Below are positions 3,982 to 61,437 of a stretch of 64,000 nucleotides of DNA, in pieces; position 1 is the first letter of the stretch; every line of letters starts with the position of its first letter. The DNA is from a virus (lineage: Duplodnaviria; Caudoviricetes). The notes beneath the pieces were generated by a model that was not told the origin of the DNA, searched no databases, and saw nothing but the letters and a program-made list of their open reading frames with translations. A program made the position numbers and the translations under genes. The stretch is taken from positions 2,176 through 66,175 of IMG/VR virus record IMGVR_UViG_3300044454_000039, one strand, 5' to 3'.

Positions 3982-4035
3982 CGTGCGCAGGAGATAGTAG
4001 TCGCAGCAGTTGTAGCAGCACCCGTAGCACAACCC

Positions 4036-4066
4036 GTCAACATTCCAACTCGATTGGAAACTTGAC
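4036..4066. repeat. 31-bp dyad motif, copy 3
   Basis: GTCA-ACAT-TCCAAC-TCG-ATTGGA-AACT-TGAC, directly upstream of the AAA gene. Confidence 0.8.
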
Positions 4067-4085
4067 ACACTTGGAGACGCATATC

Positions 4086-5192
4086 ATGGCAACCATGCAC
4101 GACATGGACGTTATCGTCCGCCGCGCGTTGCGGTGCAAGTACAACGTGATGTTCAGGAGCCAGCCCGCGCTGGGCAAGACGTTCAAGGTGAACGAGATCG
4201 TGTCGGCGTTGCAGGCCGAAGATCCCGAGTTCTACTACGCGTATCTGGACGGCGGCACGCTGACCCCGCCCGACGTGGTGATGTCGGTGCCGGACATGCA
4301 GGAGTTCATGATCCGCAAGCTGGTGGACGGCACGTTCCCCAACTACTACAAGACGCCCGACGCGCACGGCATCATCTACGTGGGCGAGTGGATGTTGCAG
4401 GGCTTCGAAGTCAACAAGGGCACGCAGAAGTTGATCAACCACGAGGATGTGGGCGGCGGCTTCCGCTTGGCGCCCGGCATCATCATCGTGGCGGACGGCA
4501 ATCGCTTGAAGGACAAGTCCGGCGCGCAGGTGCAGTCGCGTGCGGTCATGAGTCGGTTCGAAACGTGGGAACTGGAATACGACACCGACTATGCGCTGGG
4601 AGTGATGCAGAACTTCCACGAGCGCGTGGGTGCGTTCGCGCTGCGCAACCCGATGGAGATCGACAACTACCGGGATGTGTTCGAGAACGAAGAGCGCAAC
4701 GAGAACGACGTGACGTATCAGGAAGGCAAGCAGGGCATTTGGGCCAGCCTGCGCTCGTGGGATCGCGTGAGCCTCAAGATGCGCGACGCCGATGCGACGG
4801 GTGTGCCGCTGATCCCCGGCGAAGTCTCGCGCAACGTCGGCACGGAAACTGCAAACAAGTTCACGGCATTCAACCAGATGCTCGACAACTTGGCCACGCT
4901 GGAGCAGATCATCCGCGAGCCGGTCAAGACGCCGGTCCCGCAGCGCATGGACGAGAAGTACGCACTGTCCACGATGCTCGCGCTGCTGGTCAAGCGTGAC
5001 AATTGGGAGCCCATCGCCAAGTACATGCAGCGCTACCCCGACGAGCAGCAGGCGTGCTACTTCAAGCTGATGAACGACCGGCTGGGCAAGGCGAAGGATG
5101 CCAACGACAGCTTCATCAAGTCCAGCAAGACGTACCAGTTGTGGATCACGGCGCCCCACATCCAGCGGTTGCTCAACGGCGCCACCGCGTAG
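4086..5192 (+). CDS. MoxR-like AAA+ ATPase
   Basis: Walker A-like SQPALGKT, Walker B-like IIYVGE, sensor-1 ADGN, Arg-finger SRF; GGAG RBS; linked to a vWA gene. Confidence 0.8.
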   Translation: MATMHDMDVIVRRALRCKYNVMFRSQPALGKTFKVNEIVSALQAEDPEFYYAYLDGGTLTPPDVVMSVPDMQEFMIRKLVDGTFPNYYKTPDAHGIIYVGEWMLQGFEVNKGTQKLINHEDVGGGFRLAPGIIIVADGNRLKDKSGAQVQSRAVMSRFETWELEYDTDYALGVMQNFHERVGAFALRNPMEIDNYRDVFENEERNENDVTYQEGKQGIWASLRSWDRVSLKMRDADATGVPLIPGEVSRNVGTETANKFTAFNQMLDNLATLEQIIREPVKTPVPQRMDEKYALSTMLALLVKRDNWEPIAKYMQRYPDEQQACYFKLMNDRLGKAKDANDSFIKSSKTYQLWITAPHIQRLLNGATA

Positions 5193-5226: not shown

Positions 5227-6114
5227 ATGAACACGACCCAACAATCCATGCATTCGCTGTTGCTGTACTCGCTCTACGCCCCGGCGTGGACGGCCCGCAA
5301 GCTGGACAAGAAGATCACGGCCGAGATCAAGGAACAGCACAACGTCGATTCCGACGTGGACGCTGGCAACTTCAACAAGTTCCTGCTGCCCGACTTCAAG
5401 GAACTGGCGGCGTGCAAGAGCTTCATCGGCAAGACCCGGCAGGAGTTCTACCTGCGCACGGCGCCGTGGGGCGAGCAGCGCGGGGCGCGCGTCGGCAAGG
5501 CCGAAGAGCACATGGAGATGCTGTCGTGGTTCGGTGATCGCGTCGAGGACTTCAAGCCCCTGAAGCGCGAGATGCTGGCCACGTACGCCGAGCACGTGGC
5601 GCTCGCCGAGTTCAAGCTGAACGAGATGTACGACCCGATGGACTACCCGTCCGTGGAGAAGGTGGACGCGAAGTTCCAGTTGCGCATGTCGGCGGTGCCG
5701 CTGCCCAACATCAACGACGTGCGGCTGTTGCAGGAGATCCCGCCGCACATCAGGGCGGACATCGAGGCGTCGATCACGGCGGACATCCAGAACAGCATCA
5801 CGGCCACGCTCACGCACGGGTTCCAGTCGCTCTACAAGCCCATCGCCCACATGGCCGACGTGCTGCACAAGTACAAGGAAGGCGAAGTGAAGCGGCTGTT
5901 CGACAGCGTGGTCGAGAACGTGCGCACGATGTCGGAGATGGCGCACAAGCTGAACATCAGCCGCGACCCGACGCTCGAAGCGTTCGCCATCGACGCGGGT
6001 AATCTGGTGGATCAACTCACGGCGAAGGATCTGCGCGACAGCGAAGGGATGCAGGCCATCGTCGGGCAGAAGGCGCGCGAACTGGCGGATCGGATCGCGC
6101 AATTCATGCCATGA
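5227..6114 (+). CDS. conserved helical phage protein (DUF3150-like) of AAA-vWA modules
   Basis: AGGAG RBS; WTARKLDK N-terminal motif; position between the AAA and vWA genes. Family name is from recall. Confidence 0.65.
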   Translation: MNTTQQSMHSLLLYSLYAPAWTARKLDKKITAEIKEQHNVDSDVDAGNFNKFLLPDFKELAACKSFIGKTRQEFYLRTAPWGEQRGARVGKAEEHMEMLSWFGDRVEDFKPLKREMLATYAEHVALAEFKLNEMYDPMDYPSVEKVDAKFQLRMSAVPLPNINDVRLLQEIPPHIRADIEASITADIQNSITATLTHGFQSLYKPIAHMADVLHKYKEGEVKRLFDSVVENVRTMSEMAHKLNISRDPTLEAFAIDAGNLVDQLTAKDLRDSEGMQAIVGQKARELADRIAQFMP

Positions 6115-6377
6115 GCACGCGTCGCAAGATGCGTCGCAAGCTGGCGAAGAAGCAGCTACTCGCGAAGGTACGGGAGATGGAGCGCAAGCTGTCTCCCGTC
6201 TACGCGATCCAGAAGAAGGACGGGTGGACTGCTGACCCGGCCCTCGACGGCATCTACGTGCCGCTGCGCTGGTCGAATCACTACGGCTGGGTGCATCAAG
6301 GCTTCACCAAGTTCACCAGTGCGGAGATGCACGAGTTGCGCCTGCCCGGCCGCGACTGCGAGTGGGTGATGCTATGA
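6111..6377 (+). CDS. small basic protein, LLxxVRxME family member 1
   Basis: ATGA overlap; KKQLLAKVREMERKLSP. Confidence 0.75.
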   Translation: MSTRRKMRRKLAKKQLLAKVREMERKLSPVYAIQKKDGWTADPALDGIYVPLRWSNHYGWVHQGFTKFTSAEMHELRLPGRDCEWVML

Positions 6378-6646
6378 GAATCCGCGAGACGGATCGCAGG
6401 ACGTACGTGGTGTTGACTGCGCGAGAGGCCAAAGAGATCGGCATCACGATCAAGAAGCAGCTTATCGTGCGAGGGATGGAAGTCCGCGTGTATCAGCCAC
6501 CCCCCGACGCGCAACCTGCACGCACGGTGTACACCATCGAAGAGGCGGTGCGGCTGTCGGAATTGATATTGGCTGGGGCACGGTGGTGCGAGTATGGACG
6601 CATGCACTTCCTTGCCGTGCTGCCGTGGAAGGTGCCGCCACTATGA
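6374..6646 (+). CDS. small protein, divergent LLxxVRxME family member 2
   Basis: ATGA overlaps at both ends; KKQLIVRGME. Confidence 0.7.
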   Translation: MRIRETDRRTYVVLTAREAKEIGITIKKQLIVRGMEVRVYQPPPDAQPARTVYTIEEAVRLSELILAGARWCEYGRMHFLAVLPWKVPPL

Positions 6647-6924
6647 AGCTGAGCCGCAAGCAGCGGAAGCAGCGGCGGTTGCTGCGCTTGGTGCGGCAGA
6701 TGGAAGCCAAGCTGCAAACCCCAAAGGTGCGAAAAGATCCGCGCGGCTGGGTGCCGTGGAAGTGGTACGTGGAGAGCAAGCAGTTGAACGAAGAGATGTT
6801 GCGGCGTGTTCAGCCTAGCAAGTTCATCACGTTGTTCGCAGGAGAATTGGGCACAGTAGAACGTGTCCGTATCATCAACTCAATCGGAGATGCAGATGAC
6901 AAGCGTAGCAAGAGTGAAGAGTAA
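6643..6924 (+). CDS. small basic protein, LLxxVRxME family member 3, with capsid-like segments
   Basis: ATGA overlap; RRLLRLVRQMEAKLQTP; segments RGWVPWK and GELGTVERVR resemble the MCP. Confidence 0.75.
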   Translation: MKLSRKQRKQRRLLRLVRQMEAKLQTPKVRKDPRGWVPWKWYVESKQLNEEMLRRVQPSKFITLFAGELGTVERVRIINSIGDADDKRSKSEE

Positions 6925-8482
6925 CCCGGCGATGCCGGACCCGAAGGCGGCAGGGGCAATCCTTGGCCACCAGAAGTTCGAGGGCATGAGCGAGACGGCC
7001 GTGCGTCTGATGTTGCGCGTGCCGTACATCATGGTGCTGTACTACAGCTTGACGTTCTATGTCACCAAGCTGATACGAACGCTGGCGGTCAACGGCGTGG
7101 CGTGCTGGATCAACCAACAGTTCTGGTCACAACTCACGCGCGATCAGCGGCTCACTGCTGTCGGGCACGAGATTGGCCACAAGATGTTGCTGCATCCGAC
7201 GCGTCGTGGGTCACGTGATCCGTACATCTGGAATGCGGCAGGGGATTACGTCATTAATCTGATGCTGGTGGAGTCGGGGTTCGTGCCGCTCACAAACTTG
7301 GTCATCGACGGGCAGCCGTGGTCATGGCTCTACGATGTCAAGTACAAGGGCATGACAACGGAGCAAGTCTACGAGGCACTGATCAAGGAGTATGACGATG
7401 CAGCAAGCAAGAAACCGAAAGAACCGCAACCGGGACAAGCTGCTGGCCCGCAAGGTGCGGGAGATGGAGACGATTCTGAATCCGCCGACGATGCCGACGA
7501 TGGCGAGGGAGAGGACGGTTCAGGAGATGGTGGATCTGCTGGCGAAGCAGATGATGGAGACGATGGAGCAGGAGAGGTACAAGATGCTGACGCAGGGAGC
7601 AACGCTGCGGGTGGATCTGTACCGGGCACAGGTGCAGGCGTACGCGGCCCAAGCACAGGCACAAGCGCAGGCAATGCCGCCGAAGTGGATGGCGAAGATG
7701 GTGATCCCGCCGACGATGGCCGCTCAGATGGCAGCCGTGATGCAGAAGCCAAGCTCGGACCCATGCGTGATCTGCTCGACTTCGGAACCGACCCCGAAGG
7801 GAACACGTACGAAGATCCTGAACGTGATGCGGAGAGTCCTGCACAGTTTGAAGAAAGGATGAAGCAGGAACTCGCGGCGGCCGAGCAGGTGGCGAAGATG
7901 AACGGCAAGACACCGGGCTGGATGAAGCGCGTGATGGCGAACGCGCAACACCAGAAGGTGCCATGGCCCGAGATCGTCGAGCAATACCTGAAGGGGCTGG
8001 TGCAGGCCGACTACTCGTGGCGTCGCTTCAGCAAGCGCGATCTGATCCGCATCGGCAGCATCTCGCCGGACATGTACGAGCCCGCCATGGGTGGCTTGCT
8101 GCTGCTGGTCGATTGTTCCGGCTCGATCACGGGCAAGATCCTCACGATGTTCGGCAGGCACTTCCGCGACGTGCTGGAGCAGGTGAAGCCGAAGTGGGTG
8201 GAAGTGGTGTACTTCGACACGCAACCGTACCCGCCGTACGAGCGCTTCGAGCGCGCGGAGTTCGACGAGGACACGGCGCGGCTCAAGCCTGCCGGTGGCG
8301 GCGGCACGGACTTCCGTTGGTTCGCCCAATACGAAGAGAACATGGACGAGGCGCCGGAAGTGGTGATGTGCCTGACTGATCTGGAAGGACCGGTCGGACG
8401 CGAGACGACGGCGCCGATGCTGTGGCTGTGCACGAGCAGCATCGAGGAAGCGCGGTACGGTGAAGTGATCAGCATCTCATAG
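6896..8482 (+). CDS. zincin metallopeptidase-like + vWA domain protein (DUF2201-like)
   Basis: HEIGH (HExxH), WNAAGDYVIN, acidic Gly/Asp linker, MIDAS DCSGS, GGGGTDF, LTD; GGAG RBS before ATG 6896. Confidence 0.88.
   Translation: MTSVARVKSNPAMPDPKAAGAILGHQKFEGMSETAVRLMLRVPYIMVLYYSLTFYVTKLIRTLAVNGVACWINQQFWSQLTRDQRLTAVGHEIGHKMLLHPTRRGSRDPYIWNAAGDYVINLMLVESGFVPLTNLVIDGQPWSWLYDVKYKGMTTEQVYEALIKEYDDAASKKPKEPQPGQAAGPQGAGDGDDSESADDADDGEGEDGSGDGGSAGEADDGDDGAGEVQDADAGSNAAGGSVPGTGAGVRGPSTGTSAGNAAEVDGEDGDPADDGRSDGSRDAEAKLGPMRDLLDFGTDPEGNTYEDPERDAESPAQFEERMKQELAAAEQVAKMNGKTPGWMKRVMANAQHQKVPWPEIVEQYLKGLVQADYSWRRFSKRDLIRIGSISPDMYEPAMGGLLLLVDCSGSITGKILTMFGRHFRDVLEQVKPKWVEVVYFDTQPYPPYERFERAEFDEDTARLKPAGGGGTDFRWFAQYEENMDEAPEVVMCLTDLEGPVGRETTAPMLWLCTSSIEEARYGEVISIS
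7398..7862 (+). CDS. overprinted gene inside the vWA linker, LLxxVRxME family member 4
   Basis: AAGGAG 7 nt before ATG 7398; DKLLARKVREMETILNP matches the family motif; G/C-ending codons in this frame; stop overlaps an in-frame vWA ATG at 7859. Confidence 0.7.
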   Translation: MQQARNRKNRNRDKLLARKVREMETILNPPTMPTMARERTVQEMVDLLAKQMMETMEQERYKMLTQGATLRVDLYRAQVQAYAAQAQAQAQAMPPKWMAKMVIPPTMAAQMAAVMQKPSSDPCVICSTSEPTPKGTRTKILNVMRRVLHSLKKG

Positions 8483-10170: not shown

Positions 10171-10407
10171 ATGAAATATCCCACACAACCGAAGACCATC
10201 CGGCCGTACCGTCTGTGGAATGCGCAGGAGAAAAAGCCGGTCTTGTATCGCTACTACAAGCACCGGACCAATGCGCACCACGGTGCATTGATCGACGCCC
10301 GCTGGGCGAAGGTCGGTACGACCATCGAAGTGTACAACGCGCAGACCGGCAATCTGGTCGGGCAATACACCCGGCGCGTCCACACGATCACATTCTCAGG
10401 AGCATGA
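10171..10407 (+). CDS. hypothetical protein
   Basis: Operon packing; start at ATG 10171. Confidence 0.65.
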   Translation: MKYPTQPKTIRPYRLWNAQEKKPVLYRYYKHRTNAHHGALIDARWAKVGTTIEVYNAQTGNLVGQYTRRVHTITFSGA

Positions 10408-10715
10408 GCATGCCCACCAAAGGCTACAAGATGACAGCGGAACAGATCGCCGCCCGGCAAGCGGCGCGTGCACGGAATGCCGAATTGGGAATCACCAAGA
10501 ACGGCAAGAAGATCGGCAGGCCGAAGAAGGCGTCGAAGAAAAAGACTGTGCGTGACGAGAAGCCGCGCGAGCACAGCATCCCCCTGTCGGCGATCCCCGG
10601 CAAGAAGGTGACGGCGAAGAAGGTGAAGAAGGCGCCGGGGGCCGTGGCCCGTTCCGACATCGGGACGCTGGCCGAGGCGTTGCTGCTGTTGATCCGCGCG
10701 CTGCCGAAGGGGTAG
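10404..10715 (+). CDS. Lys-rich putative DNA-binding protein
   Basis: AGGAG RBS; AT-hook-like KIGRPKK; start may be 10410. Confidence 0.7.
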   Translation: MSMPTKGYKMTAEQIAARQAARARNAELGITKNGKKIGRPKKASKKKTVRDEKPREHSIPLSAIPGKKVTAKKVKKAPGAVARSDIGTLAEALLLLIRALPKG

Positions 10716-11329: not shown

Positions 11330-11358
11330 GGGTGTCTCCGAAAAGAGTGGTGAGGGGC

Positions 11359-11389
11359 GTCAGAACTCCAATCGAATTGGAATCCTGAC
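11359..11389. repeat. 31-bp dyad motif, copy 4
   Basis: GTCA-GAAC-TCCAAT-CGA-ATTGGA-ATCC-TGAC, between the two antisense genes. Confidence 0.8.
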
Positions 11390-11442
11390 GCTTACCGCAG
11401 CCAACTGAGGAACCAGTTGTACAGTCTGGACAGCAGGGTAGT

Positions 11443-13912: not shown

Positions 13913-14078
13913 CAGTGCGGAGCACGACCCGTTGGGGGCGGTTGATCGAGAGCATCTGCGGCGGCAGTGGATCGCGGCCGTGGTAGCGGTGCGCAAAACC
14001 AGAACCGGTTGGATCGCTGACCGGAAGGTGCTGCGCGTGGAAGTGGTACAACTACACAAACTGGAGAAGCAAGCATGA
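13866..14078 (+). CDS. small basic hypothetical protein
   Basis: GGGGAG RBS before GTG; ATGA overlap with the next gene. Confidence 0.65.
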   Translation: MNLKALRKRAKQLFPDSAEHDPLGAVDREHLRRQWIAAVVAVRKTRTGWIADRKVLRVEVVQLHKLEKQA

Positions 14079-14539
14079 GCACGCAATCGCAGTACGAGTT
14101 CGACAAGGGGATCGCAATCCCGACGACCACGGCGCGGCAGGGTGTCAACATGGACATGCTGCGCGCGATGCCCGTGGGCACGAGCAAGTGGTTCAGCCCG
14201 AAGGAACAGAAGCGGGCGACCCGGTTCTACCGGGTGGCGAAGAAGCTGGGCATCACCATCGTGATCCGCAAGGTGGACAAGACCGACCCGCGCGGGGCCG
14301 GTGTGCGGATGTGGCGCGTGGATGCCAAGCCCGCGCTCGACCCCATCGCGGCGGCCGAGAAGGCGGCGCGCAGCAAGAAGAAGGCCGCCCCCAAGAAGGC
14401 GGCGAAGAAGCCCGCCCCCAAGAAGGCGGCGAAGAAGCCCGCCCCGAAGAAGGCGGCGCCGAAGAAGAAGGCCGCCCCCAAGAAGGCGCCGGGGCCGCTG
14501 GTCGCCACGGAAGCCGCGTCGGCGGCGATTGCGGCGTAG
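14075..14539 (+). CDS. putative DNA-binding protein with histone H1-like PAPKKAAKK tail
   Basis: Small globular N-domain ending GVRMWRV, then Lys/Ala/Pro repeats. Confidence 0.8.
   Translation: MSTQSQYEFDKGIAIPTTTARQGVNMDMLRAMPVGTSKWFSPKEQKRATRFYRVAKKLGITIVIRKVDKTDPRGAGVRMWRVDAKPALDPIAAAEKAARSKKKAAPKKAAKKPAPKKAAKKPAPKKAAPKKKAAPKKAPGPLVATEAASAAIAA
14375..14491 (+). repeat. 27-bp-unit coding tandem repeat
   Basis: Repeated aagaagcccgcccccaagaaggcggcg units. Confidence 0.8.
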
Positions 14540-14554
14540 GGCCAAGGGGCGATC

Positions 14555-14884
14555 ATGCGATCCATTCTGGACGACGCGAAAGAGATCATCTACGGCGACC
14601 GGGAACGGACGTATGGTCGCCCCGAGTTCAACCTGACTAGCATCGCCGAGTTCTGGCGACTGTATCTCGAACGGAAGCACAATGTGTTGGTAGCGTTAAT
14701 GCCCGCCGACGTTGCCTACATGATGGTGTTGTTGAAACTGGCACGGCTGATGAACCAAGACGACCATCGCGATTCGCAGGTGGATGCCGTTGGTTATATG
14801 GCGCTGATCGACCGGATACAACGGGAGCAGACAGCGCAACTCATGGAGACGCAAAATGCAAGCAGCACAGAAGGTGGGAGTTAG
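14555..14884 (+). CDS. DUF6378-like phage protein
   Basis: ILDDA..II.GDR..TYG.P....IA.FW, MVLLKLAR, DS.VD.VGY motifs. Confidence 0.75.
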   Translation: MRSILDDAKEIIYGDRERTYGRPEFNLTSIAEFWRLYLERKHNVLVALMPADVAYMMVLLKLARLMNQDDHRDSQVDAVGYMALIDRIQREQTAQLMETQNASSTEGGS

Positions 14885-15143
14885 CTGGGCACAAGAGGAA
14901 GTCGATCACAACGACCGGCTCATCCTCAACGGCGAGGGCGATTACGTCAAGTCGCATTGGGTGCACAACAGCCCCAAGACTTCGCCAAACTACAAGCCGA
15001 TGCTGATCACGCGCAACGAACTGCTGAACCGGGTGATGACGGCGCAGCATCATCTGGAGCGCGTGCGGGAATCCATTACGTCGATGGAAGAACTGCTCAA
15101 CGGGCCGAAGTTCGAGCCCGCCAAGGAAGAGCCGAAGGCGTGA
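14856..15143 (+). CDS. hypothetical protein
   Basis: GGAGAC RBS. Confidence 0.7.
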   Translation: MQAAQKVGVSWAQEEVDHNDRLILNGEGDYVKSHWVHNSPKTSPNYKPMLITRNELLNRVMTAQHHLERVRESITSMEELLNGPKFEPAKEEPKA

Positions 15144-27808: not shown

Positions 27809-29725
27809 TCAGGCGGTGGCGGTTGCAAGCTCCCCGGCAAATGCCGTCAATCCGTTGAGCGCTGACGACGCTACGCTGTTGGCCACATTGGCGACATCGG
27901 TCACACCCTTGGCGGCGGCCAGCGTGGACTCCACCTGCGCCTTCCACTCGGCAAGATGCTGGTGCGCCTTCTCGATGTCGATCTGCGTTTCCACGGAGTA
28001 CATGCGCGCCATGAAGTCGCCCATGATCTGCGTGGCGCTGGCGTAGCCGCGAAGCTGCTCGGCGACCGCAGACCATTCCTTGCCGAAGGCTTCGATGCCG
28101 GTCGAGTACGCGCGCAACTGCCCATCGAGTTGAACCTGCCACGCCTTCAACGACTGCTCGTTCTGTCGGCCCACGGCGTCGATGTTCACCGCGATGGCCT
28201 TCACCTTCTCGCTCTCGGCTTCGATGCTGGCGCGATAGGCATTCACCGAGGCCGTGTACCCCGACACCTGCGCTTCGTACGCCTTGGCCCGCGCCATCTG
28301 GCCTTCGTTCGCCGCAGCGTACCCCTGCCACCGCGCCTTGTACGCCTCGATCTTCGCAGCGTAGGCACGCACCGCCGCCTCGTAGCCCATGATCGCGATG
28401 CGATCCGCTTCGAGCTTGGCCGTCTCGGCATCCACACCAACCTTGTACATCTCCACCAGTGCCTTGTTGGCGTTGACCATCGTCGCCAGCATTTCCACGT
28501 ACGCCTTATCGACTTCAGTCTTCGCCATCTCCGCGCGGATCTCGGCTTCGTACACGCGCACCTGCATCTCCAGCGCTTGCCACCGGGCCTTGTAGATTTC
28601 CACTGCGGCCTTATACCCCTCCCACTTGGCAAGATAGATCTGGATGTTCGCCTTGTTGATTTCCAGCATGCCGTTGAGCACGAGCTTGGTCATCTCGATG
28701 GCTTGACCGTTGGCTTCGGTGACGACCTTTGCGATGTCCACGGCGAACACCAGCAGCGTCGATTCCAACTTCACGCCTAGATCGAGCATGAACTTCATGT
28801 GGTCATGTTCGAGTTCCAGATTCTTGATCGCCGTATCCGTGGCCACCTTGCTGACGGCTTCCGCTGCCGTCTGCCGGGCTTCCCTCATTCCCGCGAGCAG
28901 TGAACCGGACGGCAGCAGCAATCCGCGCCGCGCCGCGCCTTCGAACACTTGCGCACCTGCGCGGCGTTGTTCCGCTGCCACGCGATCCGTGGCGCGCGTG
29001 ACGATGGCTTCCTCGATGGGCACCGGGATACCTGCGCCGCCCGTGTCGAAGTACGACGAGAGCACCGACTGGATCTTCGCGATCAGCGGGTTCTCCCCAA
29101 GCATCGCACGGTACCAGTCGAACCAGTGGCTCTTCACCAGTCGAGGGATCTCATCGGCGTAGTTCGCGTACGAGTCGCTGAGCGCGGCCAGATATTCCTC
29201 CAGCGACAACCACTGCAACTCCTGCGGCACCACGCCATCGAACACCGGGTTGGTGAGCACCGGGGCGTTCGGGATCGAGATCGTCTGGTACGGCAGCGTC
29301 GCGCTCGGCAGCGGCAGCAGCGCGGGCTGGCTGGGGAAGCTGGGTGTGTGCCGCTGTGGCATGCTGCCTGTGCCGTCCGAAGGCTCGCCACCCGGTGCGC
29401 CGGGGAAAGTGAGCACGGGCGCGGTCGGTATGTTCCCCGGCTTGCCGTCGAACTTCGGCTGGTACTGTGCGGGGTACTTCTCCATCACCGGCTCTTTCGG
29501 CGCGGCGCCTAGTGCCGGTTTGGACGGCGTGGCGAAGCTCGGATTGAAACCGATGATCGGCGCGCTCGGCGTCTGCCAATCGTACGGCTGGTACTCGAAC
29601 GACGAGGCGTTCGCGAACGATGCATACGCAGTCGCCAAGGCAGACTGCGCTTCGTTCTTCATCGTGTTGGCAGCGTTAAGGTGCTCGGTGAAGATGGCGT
29701 TGATAAGTTGCGACTCGGCGCTCAT
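27809..29725 (-). CDS. putative virion (ejection/tail) protein, Pro-rich then long coiled coil
   Basis: AGGAG RBS; repeated (V/I)xxY(K/R)A units; last gene of the late arm. Confidence 0.7.
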   Translation of the reverse strand: MSAESQLINAIFTEHLNAANTMKNEAQSALATAYASFANASSFEYQPYDWQTPSAPIIGFNPSFATPSKPALGAAPKEPVMEKYPAQYQPKFDGKPGNIPTAPVLTFPGAPGGEPSDGTGSMPQRHTPSFPSQPALLPLPSATLPYQTISIPNAPVLTNPVFDGVVPQELQWLSLEEYLAALSDSYANYADEIPRLVKSHWFDWYRAMLGENPLIAKIQSVLSSYFDTGGAGIPVPIEEAIVTRATDRVAAEQRRAGAQVFEGAARRGLLLPSGSLLAGMREARQTAAEAVSKVATDTAIKNLELEHDHMKFMLDLGVKLESTLLVFAVDIAKVVTEANGQAIEMTKLVLNGMLEINKANIQIYLAKWEGYKAAVEIYKARWQALEMQVRVYEAEIRAEMAKTEVDKAYVEMLATMVNANKALVEMYKVGVDAETAKLEADRIAIMGYEAAVRAYAAKIEAYKARWQGYAAANEGQMARAKAYEAQVSGYTASVNAYRASIEAESEKVKAIAVNIDAVGRQNEQSLKAWQVQLDGQLRAYSTGIEAFGKEWSAVAEQLRGYASATQIMGDFMARMYSVETQIDIEKAHQHLAEWKAQVESTLAAAKGVTDVANVANSVASSALNGLTAFAGELATATA

Positions 29726-29734
29726 GAACGACTC

Positions 29735-54778: not shown

Positions 54779-55816
54779 TTACGCCGTGCACGCGACTTCG
54801 GCACGGACCATGAACGCATCCTGAAGGATGATCGCCGACTGCCACGCCTTCCAGCCGACCGTGCCCCGCTGACCGAGCGGGTCGCCCGCCGCAGGCTTCG
54901 GGTTGACGACCATCGGGACGATGGAATCCTTGCCCCGCAGCGGCACGATGCCGTACGCGTCGCGGGCAATGTACAGGATCGGGTACACGTCGGCATTGGT
55001 GCCCGTCGTGGACCGCATCGCGCCCTTGGCGCCGCCACCATCCGCGAACGGCGAGAACACCGTGGACGTGAGATAGCGCACACGCTCGACGGCGCCGATC
55101 TCGTTCTCGTACGGCGTCACCGTGCCGTACTGCTTGGTCGAGATGAACCCGGCCATGGAACGGATGTCGGTTTCGCCATCGGGGTGCACCAACCCGATGT
55201 ACGCGGCTTCGACCGGTTCCGTGCGGAAGTCCGGCGTGCTCTTGAGCGCCTGCGTGATGAACTTGGCGTTCTGCCGGTTGAGCGCGGTAGTGATCTGCCG
55301 TTGCAGCCCCAGCGTGATCGGCGTGTTCACGTCGGTCCGCAATGAGCCGTTGGCGAGGAACACGTTCGTGCCCGCCTTCAGGATGTTGTAGCGCACCGTC
55401 TCCAGCGTGAGCGCTGCCTGCTCGCTCATGATCTGCGTGGCTTCGCGCAGCACCGGGTCTTCGTGGGTGTCTTCCACCACGTCGGTGATGCCGACGAAAT
55501 CACCGTACTGGTGAAGCTGGACGGTGTAGTCCGCGTACGTCAGGCGCGAGCCGGTGGGCGTCACACCTTCGACCAGCGGCGTCGTCGCGAGCGGCACGTA
55601 GAACGGCTGCCCTTGCGTACCGGCACCGGCCGCACCCGTCGCTCCCACGAGGAAGTAACGACGGAACTTCGCGGTCTGCGTGTTGTTTTGCGGGATCGGG
55701 TATTGCTGCCCGAACTTTTCGATCACCATGTACGGCATCGCGCGGGTCAAGAGATCCTTGACCACGTACGCTGCGGTACGGGGGGTGATGTCCCCATAGA
55801 GCACGGTATTCGACAT
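54779..55816 (-). CDS. major capsid protein, N4-gp56 family
   Basis: KFRRY, LVEGVTP, QYG, HPD, EIG....VR, DPLGQRGTVGWK. Confidence 0.92.
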   Translation of the reverse strand: MSNTVLYGDITPRTAAYVVKDLLTRAMPYMVIEKFGQQYPIPQNNTQTAKFRRYFLVGATGAAGAGTQGQPFYVPLATTPLVEGVTPTGSRLTYADYTVQLHQYGDFVGITDVVEDTHEDPVLREATQIMSEQAALTLETVRYNILKAGTNVFLANGSLRTDVNTPITLGLQRQITTALNRQNAKFITQALKSTPDFRTEPVEAAYIGLVHPDGETDIRSMAGFISTKQYGTVTPYENEIGAVERVRYLTSTVFSPFADGGGAKGAMRSTTGTNADVYPILYIARDAYGIVPLRGKDSIVPMVVNPKPAAGDPLGQRGTVGWKAWQSAIILQDAFMVRAEVACTA

Positions 55817-59943: not shown

Positions 59944-61437
59944 CTAACGCATGTGGTAGGGGTTGGTGAAGGTTGGCAGTGTACCAATTTCCCGCCGCCG
60001 CATCTCTCCACGTAGTCCTTTGGCGAAGTATTTGCAGAGATACCCAAAGGCATCACCGGGGTGACTATAGTCGTTTTTCAGCGGTTCCGCAGCAGTGTCC
60101 CCCTTCAGCGACTTGCCGTAGCGCCACCCGCTGCGCAGCGCTCGTATAAGCGACTTGCATCGCGGATCTATCAGCAGCGCTGGTCCCATAGGGGTAAGTC
60201 GTGTGGTGTATTGCTCGATGGCATCGACGCGCCCCGGCAGCCGATTGTTCATGTCGGGAATCTTCACCGGGTAATACTTGCGCACCACCTGCAACACTGT
60301 CTGCTCGTTCGTCTGCCCCCGCTGCGTGGACGCCGGGTCAGGCGAGATGGTCAGTTGCGCCTGCGGGAAGCGAATGCGCATCAACGGCTGCACACACGTG
60401 GTGATGAAGCGCTGCGCGCCCATATCCCGCTTGACCAGTTCATCGAGCACCAGCAACCGGCCGTGCATGTCCAGTTGCCCGAAGATCATCGCGCAATTCA
60501 TGCCGGGGTCGTACCCTGCTACAAGGGGTAAACCGGACTGGTACAGCAGCGGCTTCTTCGCCACGTGCAAGTCGTGGTTGAACGTGTTGATGACCGGCGT
60601 GCCGGAAATCGAGTAGCCCCATTCGACGCCGATGTACTGCCGCACCCACGCATCGCCGTGATCCTTCGCGAGCGCGGTGTAGTACGCCGGGCCGCCCGGC
60701 AAGTTGTTCAGATTCTCCGCATCGGGGCCGTTGCCCGGTGGCTGCTGGAAGTACGTCCAGTTGGTCGCCTTCGGCGGCGCTCCAGTGGCCAGTCGGATCT
60801 CGGAGTCGCGCACCTGTGCAGCGAGCGTCTGTTCCGGCGTGAGCGGTGCCATGCTGAACTGCTCGGCATTCTGCAACGCTTCGTACCACCAGTCGTCTTC
60901 GTTGCCGGGGTTGGATGAGCCCCACATGCCCCAATTCGTCGCGCCGCCATCCTTCTGCGACGGGAAGCGCCCGCAGCGCGCGGCGAGCGCGTCTACGATT
61001 TCCTTCGGGATCTGGACGAACTCGTCGATGATCGCGAACGTGGTTTCGAGCGAGAGCACACGTGCCACGTCGTCTGGAGTATCGAGTGCTCGAAAGAGAA
61101 CTTCACACTCAACGTCGGCGAACTTGAGCACGAAGCGTTTGTCCGTCGCGTGCCACGAGCCTGCTTCGCCATTCTTGAACCAGATGTTCCACGAGACGAT
61201 GGTGGTGTCGGTCAACTGCGGCGCCGTGTTACGCACGACCACCGCCCGCACGCGTCGCTTGCCGTCCACGGGCGACGGTATCTGCTTCGACGCGAGATAG
61301 ACGAGCTTGAAGAAAATGCCGGTGGTCTTGCCGGACCCGACCGGGCCGATGATCCAATCCGCGAAGAACTGGCGCGGCTTGTGGTGCTTGATGAATTCCT
61401 TGACCGTTGGCGCCGGGTTGTAGTCGATGATCGCCAT
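59944..61437 (-). CDS. terL: terminase large subunit
   Basis: GPVGSGKT, VVRNT, IIDE, SNP, nuclease GYDPG, DPA, HPGDA. Confidence 0.93.
   Translation of the reverse strand: MAIIDYNPAPTVKEFIKHHKPRQFFADWIIGPVGSGKTTGIFFKLVYLASKQIPSPVDGKRRVRAVVVRNTAPQLTDTTIVSWNIWFKNGEAGSWHATDKRFVLKFADVECEVLFRALDTPDDVARVLSLETTFAIIDEFVQIPKEIVDALAARCGRFPSQKDGGATNWGMWGSSNPGNEDDWWYEALQNAEQFSMAPLTPEQTLAAQVRDSEIRLATGAPPKATNWTYFQQPPGNGPDAENLNNLPGGPAYYTALAKDHGDAWVRQYIGVEWGYSISGTPVINTFNHDLHVAKKPLLYQSGLPLVAGYDPGMNCAMIFGQLDMHGRLLVLDELVKRDMGAQRFITTCVQPLMRIRFPQAQLTISPDPASTQRGQTNEQTVLQVVRKYYPVKIPDMNNRLPGRVDAIEQYTTRLTPMGPALLIDPRCKSLIRALRSGWRYGKSLKGDTAAEPLKNDYSHPGDAFGYLCKYFAKGLRGEMRRREIGTLPTFTNPYHMR

Follow-up and report, generated by a model that had tools for sequence, protein, structure and literature searches.

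Two rearranged capsid-like motifs in a mini-protein from a variable gene array at a phage ATPase-DUF2201 module

Described systems and the locus

Small proteins that act on the shell assembly of another phage are known from satellites, e.g., P4 Sid, PICI Cpm, and PLE TcaP. These are satellite-encoded and scaffold-like; they are not mosaics of capsid motifs, in contrast to the 93-aa phage mini-protein described here (ORF 6643). Mimicry of a virion protein is represented by DSAD1, which competes with the tail tube for DSR2. On the host side, several defence systems read the capsid. According to the available parts of the sources, capsids act as immune triggers for Lit-Gol of T4, CapRel-SJ46, and PifA (PMC10286901) as well as for Avs7 and Dsr1 (PMC13581612), which would give a phage a reason to encode a capsid mimic. 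In those systems, as far as these texts describe them, the trigger lies inside the real capsid and the sensor in the host, whereas here the capsid-like pieces lie in separate phage mini-genes. Ocr, Gam, and Dmd are small accessory ligand-mimics of phages, as ORF 6643 would be, but none is described in the accessible portion of the source as pieces of capsid sequence or as a tagged array (PMC10286901). Decoys on the host side are the subject of a further study, also available in part (10.1101/2023.04.06.535777). Searches of Pfam, PHROGs, and NCBIfam gave no sequence likeness between ORF 6643 and Ocr, Gam, Dmd, or DSAD1.

The N4-gp56 capsids (TIGR04387, phrog_1357; N4 capsid 9e99/9lbz) share two of their most conserved motifs with ORF 6643. 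The mini-protein differs from them in length (93 versus about 345 aa), in the reversed motif order, in its location in a non-structural operon, in an additional leader and tag, and in giving no family-level match. By comparison with these systems, ORF 6643 stands outside the capsid family and would act like the mimic inhibitors of phages. The genes around it recall CbbQ/CbbO and RavA/ViaA, where an ATPase gene likewise neighbours a vWA gene that has metal-site residues; judging from the available part of the source, the present module differs in the fusion of its vWA domain to a peptidase-like DUF2201 domain and in a third gene lying between (PMC4660213). No description of capsid-fragment mini-genes was found in the literature, within a coverage of mostly non-subscription papers; of four papers found to mention DUF2201 together with phage, none is devoted to it, judging by title or abstract.

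The window is the whole stretch of DNA that was analysed (64,000 nucleotides), taken from a complete phage record of 66,175 bases with terminal repeats. Near-identical DNA is present in sediment metagenomes. The features of the mini-protein and of the capsid are as follows.

6643-6924, plus strand: 93-aa mini-protein (ORF 6643), basic leader, tag, and two capsid motifs in the reverse of the capsid order
6682-6723, plus strand: helical tag, ORF residues 14-27 including E21, common to the array genes
6742-6813, plus strand: motif 1, ORF residues 34-57, resembling capsid C-terminal residues 317-340
6826-6882, plus strand: motif 2, ORF residues 62-80, resembling the capsid hairpin, residues 233-251
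54779-55816, minus strand: major capsid protein of the N4-gp56 family, with the motif counterparts at 55064-55120 and 54797-54868

The start of ORF 6643 overlaps the stop of ORF 6374-6646 (ATGA) and its end overlaps the start region of the DUF2201 gene. ATGA overlaps couple it to ORFs 6374 and 6111, and to gene 5227. Its codon use is gene-like (GC3 72%). Contigs from two other runs (X5 and X7) span the ORF with zero differences, so it is not an assembly artefact, and no variants were found across four runs. A strong sigma-70-like site lies at 90-118 (11/12 positions), and the capsid gene is on the opposite strand. Judged solely by gene position, ORF 6643 would be expressed early, before the late genes. 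The leader is basic and amphipathic and lacks a hydrophobic run such as would follow a twin-arginine motif, and no Tat family matched at E<=1 in Pfam or NCBIfam. The predicted fold is poor (Atlas pLDDT 0.50, pTM 0.22), and a query with it returned nothing at TM>=0.5.

Likeness to the N4-gp56 capsid

The protein encoded at 54779-55816(-) scores 305.6 bits against TIGR04387, where the cut-off is 60, and is an N4-gp56 capsid. It is the only match of this model in the genome; the whole-protein cut-off is not reached by ORF 6643, which also remained without a capsid-family match in Pfam, PHROGs, and NCBIfam at E<=1. With 93 residues and reversed motifs, the mini-protein does not have the colinear full HK97 fold.

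The initial annotation had described ORF 6643 as built from permuted fragments of the phage's own capsid protein. The two stretches and their reversal were recovered. An HMM of 58 diverse capsids (HMMER) found both motifs as two domains, in reverse order relative to the capsid, with an E of 2.7e-6 among 1,446 six-frame genome pieces, while the next-best match in the genome had an E of 0.66. With the same 58 capsids, each motif scored 31-32 bits, and the best local score was equalled in 0/33,063 shuffles. Some of these capsids had been chosen by patterns designed on ORF 6643, so the test was redone. In the profile search with shuffled controls that had been proposed along with the annotation, a 52-sequence family profile, lacking the six capsids selected by the motif-1 pattern, gave 27.6 bits for motif 1 and 30.2 bits for motif 2, each with 0/21,905 shuffles. 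Motif 2 was also found with capsids that had not been selected in this way: a close profile of 16 sequences gave 0/23,893 shuffles, and a further test with the unselected close profile 0/100,000. Motif 1 was not significant with the same 16 sequences (2,641/23,893) or with 22 N4-like capsids alone. With a matrix of 67 close capsids, ORF 6643 was the best non-capsid match for both motifs among the 1,446 genome pieces, and it outscored every non-capsid piece among 25,639 from related loci. No motif match above 13.5 bits was found outside capsids among 19,467 pieces of related genomes.

The residues concerned are those that characterize the family, as the annotation had stated. ORF 6643 contains the hairpin motif E-x-G-x-V-x-x-V-R and, with the 52-sequence profile, the C-terminal RG..WK..L motif. 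Capsid residues E239, G241, R247, S251, R317, W322, K323, and L331 are invariant in 67/67 capsids, and the identities between the mini-protein and the capsid fall on such invariant positions. At the nucleotide level, identity with the own capsid gene is 31/57 and 32/69 (46-54%). The shared residues had been said to use mostly different codons; this applies to 9 of the 16 identical residues. In the AlphaFold model of the capsid (pLDDT 75.7, best structural match phage N4), strands are predicted at 239-243, 246-250, 319-330, and 336-342. The motif-2 region is modelled as a two-strand hairpin, and the motif-1 region as a long strand that is followed by a turn and by the final strand of the protein. 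By HK97 topology, this final strand and the hairpin would both lie in the A-domain sheet without pairing with each other.

The own capsid as such is a less certain model. Against it, motif 2 remains significant (ORF 62-80 vs capsid 233-251; 9/19 identical, BLASTP E 8e-4, 2/15,895 shuffles). The first stretch is not significant in this comparison: motif 1 (ORF 34-56 vs capsid 317-339) is 7/23 identical, and its BLOSUM score of 30 over 24 residues was equalled by 2,095/15,895 shuffles. The PK..DP reported ahead of this stretch is present in both proteins, though its alignment needs a three-residue gap. When 206 distinct motif pairs were ranked, the own capsid came 7th for motif 2, 74th for motif 1, and 28th for the sum. 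Moreover, ORF 6643 and its two homologs (see below) all have L and G where the own capsid clade has P (62/67) and N (51/67). The attribution to the phage's own capsid is thus not supported. As far as the sequences tell, ORF 6643 is modelled on the N4-gp56 family consensus. Such adherence to the consensus is what one would predict for a target that recognizes a feature common to the whole family. The capsid likeness of ORF 6643, as a capsid-motif mimic and not a chance match, is confirmed at the level of sequence comparison.

Homologs, the tagged array and the nested gene

Direct searches found no homologs of ORF 6643 in 5.8 billion proteins, in 1.84 billion representatives (where two other matches were repeat proteins), or in named phages, IMG/VR, metagenomes, five relatives, and the Atlas. 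A profile of ORF 6643 and capsid pieces returned two capsid fragments only. DNA patterns for the reversed motif arrangement in IMG/VR, one of them run over 61/64 parts, gave at least 160 loci, six in frame, and zero mini-proteins. The motif-2 pattern (6/64 parts) gave at least 120 loci; among the matches listed, the frames were capsid-like or long, and the single closed short frame was unconvincing. Of the DNA around DUF2201 relatives, 80 of 91 confirmed metagenome stretches were kept, and 83 loci were scanned. Two homologs were found, a set too small to gauge selection.

L411:1874-2128: homolog between the 5227 homolog and DUF2201, 1/20,000 shuffles vs ORF 6643
L410:255-443: homolog upstream of DUF2201, 37/20,000 shuffles vs ORF 6643

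Both retain T, L, G, E, G, and V at ORF positions 63, 64, 67, 68, 70, and 75, so that motif 2 is kept while the remaining parts diverge. Both matched the capsid hairpin with 0/1,500 shuffles when the broad profile, which is biased for motif 2, was used; with the close profile the counts were 39/1,500 (L411) and 4/1,500 (L410). The sole PHROG match of the L410 protein is a major head family (E 0.053), and neither protein has a real match in named phages or the Atlas. Motif 1 is eroded in L411 (W39, L48, V56, and Q57 kept; R34, G35, K40, N49, and R55 lost) and absent from L410. Conservation of the capsid-matching positions in homologs thus applies to motif 2 and fails for motif 1.

The genes surrounding ORF 6643 are listed below.

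4086-5192, plus strand: ATPase of the module, phrog_1297 (E 4e-29)
5227-6114, plus strand: conserved gene of the module, without a family match at E<0.01 (Pfam, PHROGs, NCBIfam)
6111-6377, plus strand: array gene, leader in common with ORF 6643 (13/20,000 shuffles)
6374-6646, plus strand: array gene with an internal tag (0/3,000 shuffles), homologs in L412 and L415
6890-8482, plus strand: DUF2201 protein, putative metallopeptidase and vWA-like domain with a DxSxS motif (PF13203, PF09967)
7398-7862, plus strand: 154-aa nested ORF, likely overprinted, +1 frame of the DUF2201 linker, leader and tag
27812-29734, minus strand: late-module protein of 638 aa in phrog_10969, a family of unknown function, to which the nested gene and two further array genes show matches

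By sequence comparison, ORF 6643 is part of a variable array inserted in an operon of ATPase, unknown gene, and DUF2201 (peptidase-vWA). In G001, G003, and L421, the 5227 homolog abuts DUF2201 with nothing between, which makes 6111-6924 an insert. Other relatives carry one to seven differing small genes at the same site, and all loci in which the array was found have it at the ATPase-DUF2201 module. By eye, L416:2451-3041 and L418:4408-4977 are HNH-like ORFs at this insertion site before DUF2201. In the module itself, the vWA metal-site residues D, S, S, T, and D are invariant in nine DUF2201 homologs. The ATPase matched no Pfam AAA family at E<=1; its P-loop lacks the usual first Gly, and it has G-E in place of the Walker B D-E, as does that of G001.

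Ten array genes have in common a basic leader, which closes with a helical tag that contains a Glu (left-one-out profiles, 0-7/2,000 shuffles; ORF 6643, 0/2,000). A looser tag, [NHSAM]-E-x-[LIKM]-[LI]-x(1,2)-[GP], written after viewing the ORFs, occurs in 22/31 hand-picked array-region ORFs (shuffle mean 0.25) and in 1/23 other early ORFs. A tag matrix built without the window genes gave the four highest ranks in the genome to 6374, the nested ORF, 14856, and 6643, in this order; ORF 6643 reached 7/3,000 shuffles and 6111 was weaker (37/3,000). The third of these, the small ORF 14856-15143, does not belong to the array and carries the tag close to the C-terminus. The 6374-6646 gene matched its L412 homolog with an E of 3e-13.

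A sequence resembling the tag also occurs in terminase. In related genomes, the best untrained match of the tag matrix was an optional terminase insert of G001 (22.6 bits; next 14.2). A tag-like insert is clear in 4/24 terminase segments (L005, L030, L031, and L032) and degenerate in the terminase of the window, 59944-61437(-). The tag may have come from terminase or may have entered it. A terminase profile matched no array ORF at E<=0.05, and two matches at E 0.02-0.04 in an array-ORF profile search were at chance level.

A capsid-profile match at p<0.01 was found in 4/31 array ORFs. The 6111-6377 gene had none (1,326 and 1,419 of 1,500 shuffles with two capsid profiles). Weak likenesses of L413:929-1195 to the capsid E-loop (22/1,500 shuffles) and of L414:3007-3342 to E-loop/N-arm motifs were not counted.

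The nested ORF is likely an overprinted gene, given the coding signature of the second frame and the conserved start. AAGGAG lies 7 nt ahead of its ATG (7398). GC3 of the DUF2201 linker is 0.43 against an expected 0.83+-0.03, and the nested +1 frame has a GC3 of 81% and normal gene composition; the dip also occurs in other DUF2201 linkers. The stop-free +1 frame itself is uninformative, as 4,396/5,000 recodings of the linker were also stop-free. G001 has a 106-aa nested ORF at the same start place with the same spacing. Likely overprinted linker genes with the same start are thus seen in two phages (window 7398-7862; L085:13539-13859(-)). The +1 frames of the L412 and L409 linkers are also open, with basic starts.

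Residues 57-91 of the nested ORF match the late-module protein (phrog_10969 E 6.7e-4; genome-wide E 6e-4, 0/1,500 shuffles). The same coiled coil of this protein is matched by L414:2844 and an L412 ORF, three array ORFs in total with 0/1,500 shuffles each. A weaker match joins nested-ORF residues 42-67 to the capsid spine helix (6/14,803 shuffles with the close profile, 101/13,848 with the broad one). Both cargos are helical, and shuffles are a lenient control for helices. A likeness of the G001/L085 nested ORF to the capsid N-arm (332/17,304 shuffles) was not counted.

Further observations concern the early region. A 33-nt self-complementary-looking motif occurs in four copies, mostly before genes (651-683, 1553-1585, 4035-4067, and 11358-11390), and resembles an operator or a promoter element of the early region. 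The early ORFs 14075-14539 and 10407-10715 contain Lys/Ala/Pro-rich histone-like repeats.

Possible roles of the array

Because several defence systems sense capsids, the best reading of ORF 6643 is a non-structural decoy that would occupy host proteins recognizing phage capsid. This reading is tentative and is held at somewhat below even confidence. ORF 6643 would be a modular mini-gene in which the common helical tag is joined to two conserved N4-gp56 motifs. The hairpin would be the working part, as it is the only piece kept by all three homologs. The tag may dock the array proteins onto one common partner, the target would be a host sensor of virions, and expression would precede that of the late genes. 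The retention of family-invariant capsid residues alone in a small optional gene is in keeping with mimicry, as is the place of this gene in an array that changes fast and exchanges virion-like cargo. Nevertheless, some points weigh against a decoy. Motif 1 is not conserved, homologs are limited to two in the 83 loci scanned, and most tagged genes have no recognizable cargo. In the parts of the sources available, a capsid peptide (Gol) can trigger defence instead of blocking it (PMC10286901), and Avs sensors are described as recognizing folds; a hairpin of 19 residues, in a protein whose model is poor, may not reproduce one.

Two alternatives are unlikely, and to the same degree. The motifs could poison assembly by entering the shells of co-infecting N4-gp56-family phages and replacing the true strands, in superinfection exclusion or competition. 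It speaks for this idea that the pieces are core capsid strands in the model, that the motifs match foreign family members equally well or better than the own capsid, and that sister genes bear a coiled-coil piece of another late protein. Motif 2, however, still fits the own capsid (rank 7/206), hence self-harm would be expected, and neither the common tag nor the fixed position in the ATPase-DUF2201 operon is explained. Alternatively, a recombination hotspot could capture late-gene pieces behind a reusable leader, leaving neutral or decaying debris with no selected mimic function. The rapid turnover of the array, the erosion of motif 1, the rarity of homologs, and the lack of motif matches outside capsids in related genomes would agree with debris, but the identities fall on invariant capsid positions despite the low DNA identity, motif 2 persists across three divergent genes, and the ORF has gene-like GC3 and coupled reading frames.

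That the mini-proteins serve the ATPase-vWA module of the phage itself, as adaptors or regulators, is slightly less probable still. In this case, binding to the module would be the task of the tag, while the cargo would either direct the module to virion proteins of the same phage or compete for these proteins. The constant position at this module, the tag-like insert in terminase segments, and the constant tag Glu together with the kept vWA metal-site residues point that way, since in CbbQO an acidic side chain is bound at sites of this kind, according to the available part of the source (PMC4660213). Yet G001 and G003 have the complete module with none of the inserted genes, the motifs depart from the own capsid clade, and MoxR-type membership of the ATPase is unsupported by any Pfam AAA family. 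The same position, constant Glu, metal-site residues, and CbbQO precedent underlie an extension of the decoy reading that we consider doubtful: the array may be a swappable bait library in which virion pieces catch a host sensor and the Glu tag docks on the ATPase-peptidase-vWA machine, which would disable the catch, one bait being overprinted in the machine's own gene. Chance resemblance is highly improbable, because the lack of capsid-family matches in three libraries and the partial design of the broad profile on ORF 6643 are outweighed by the shuffle counts for motif 2 with the unselected close profile and for motif 1 without the motif-1-selected capsids, and by the repetition of motif 2 in homologs.

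The capsid likeness of ORF 6643 is real and rare, and the ORF belongs to a larger tagged array. The tagged array offers a first handle on this phage ATPase-DUF2201 module, and a likely overprinted gene has been hidden within what would pass for a 'low-complexity linker'. The major triggers of bacterial immunity include capsid and other virion proteins, and these are difficult to mutate away. If the decoy reading is true, this immunity would be countered directly by separate mini-genes in which nothing but the family-invariant capsid residues is kept, and such genes would indicate the residues that the sensors read.
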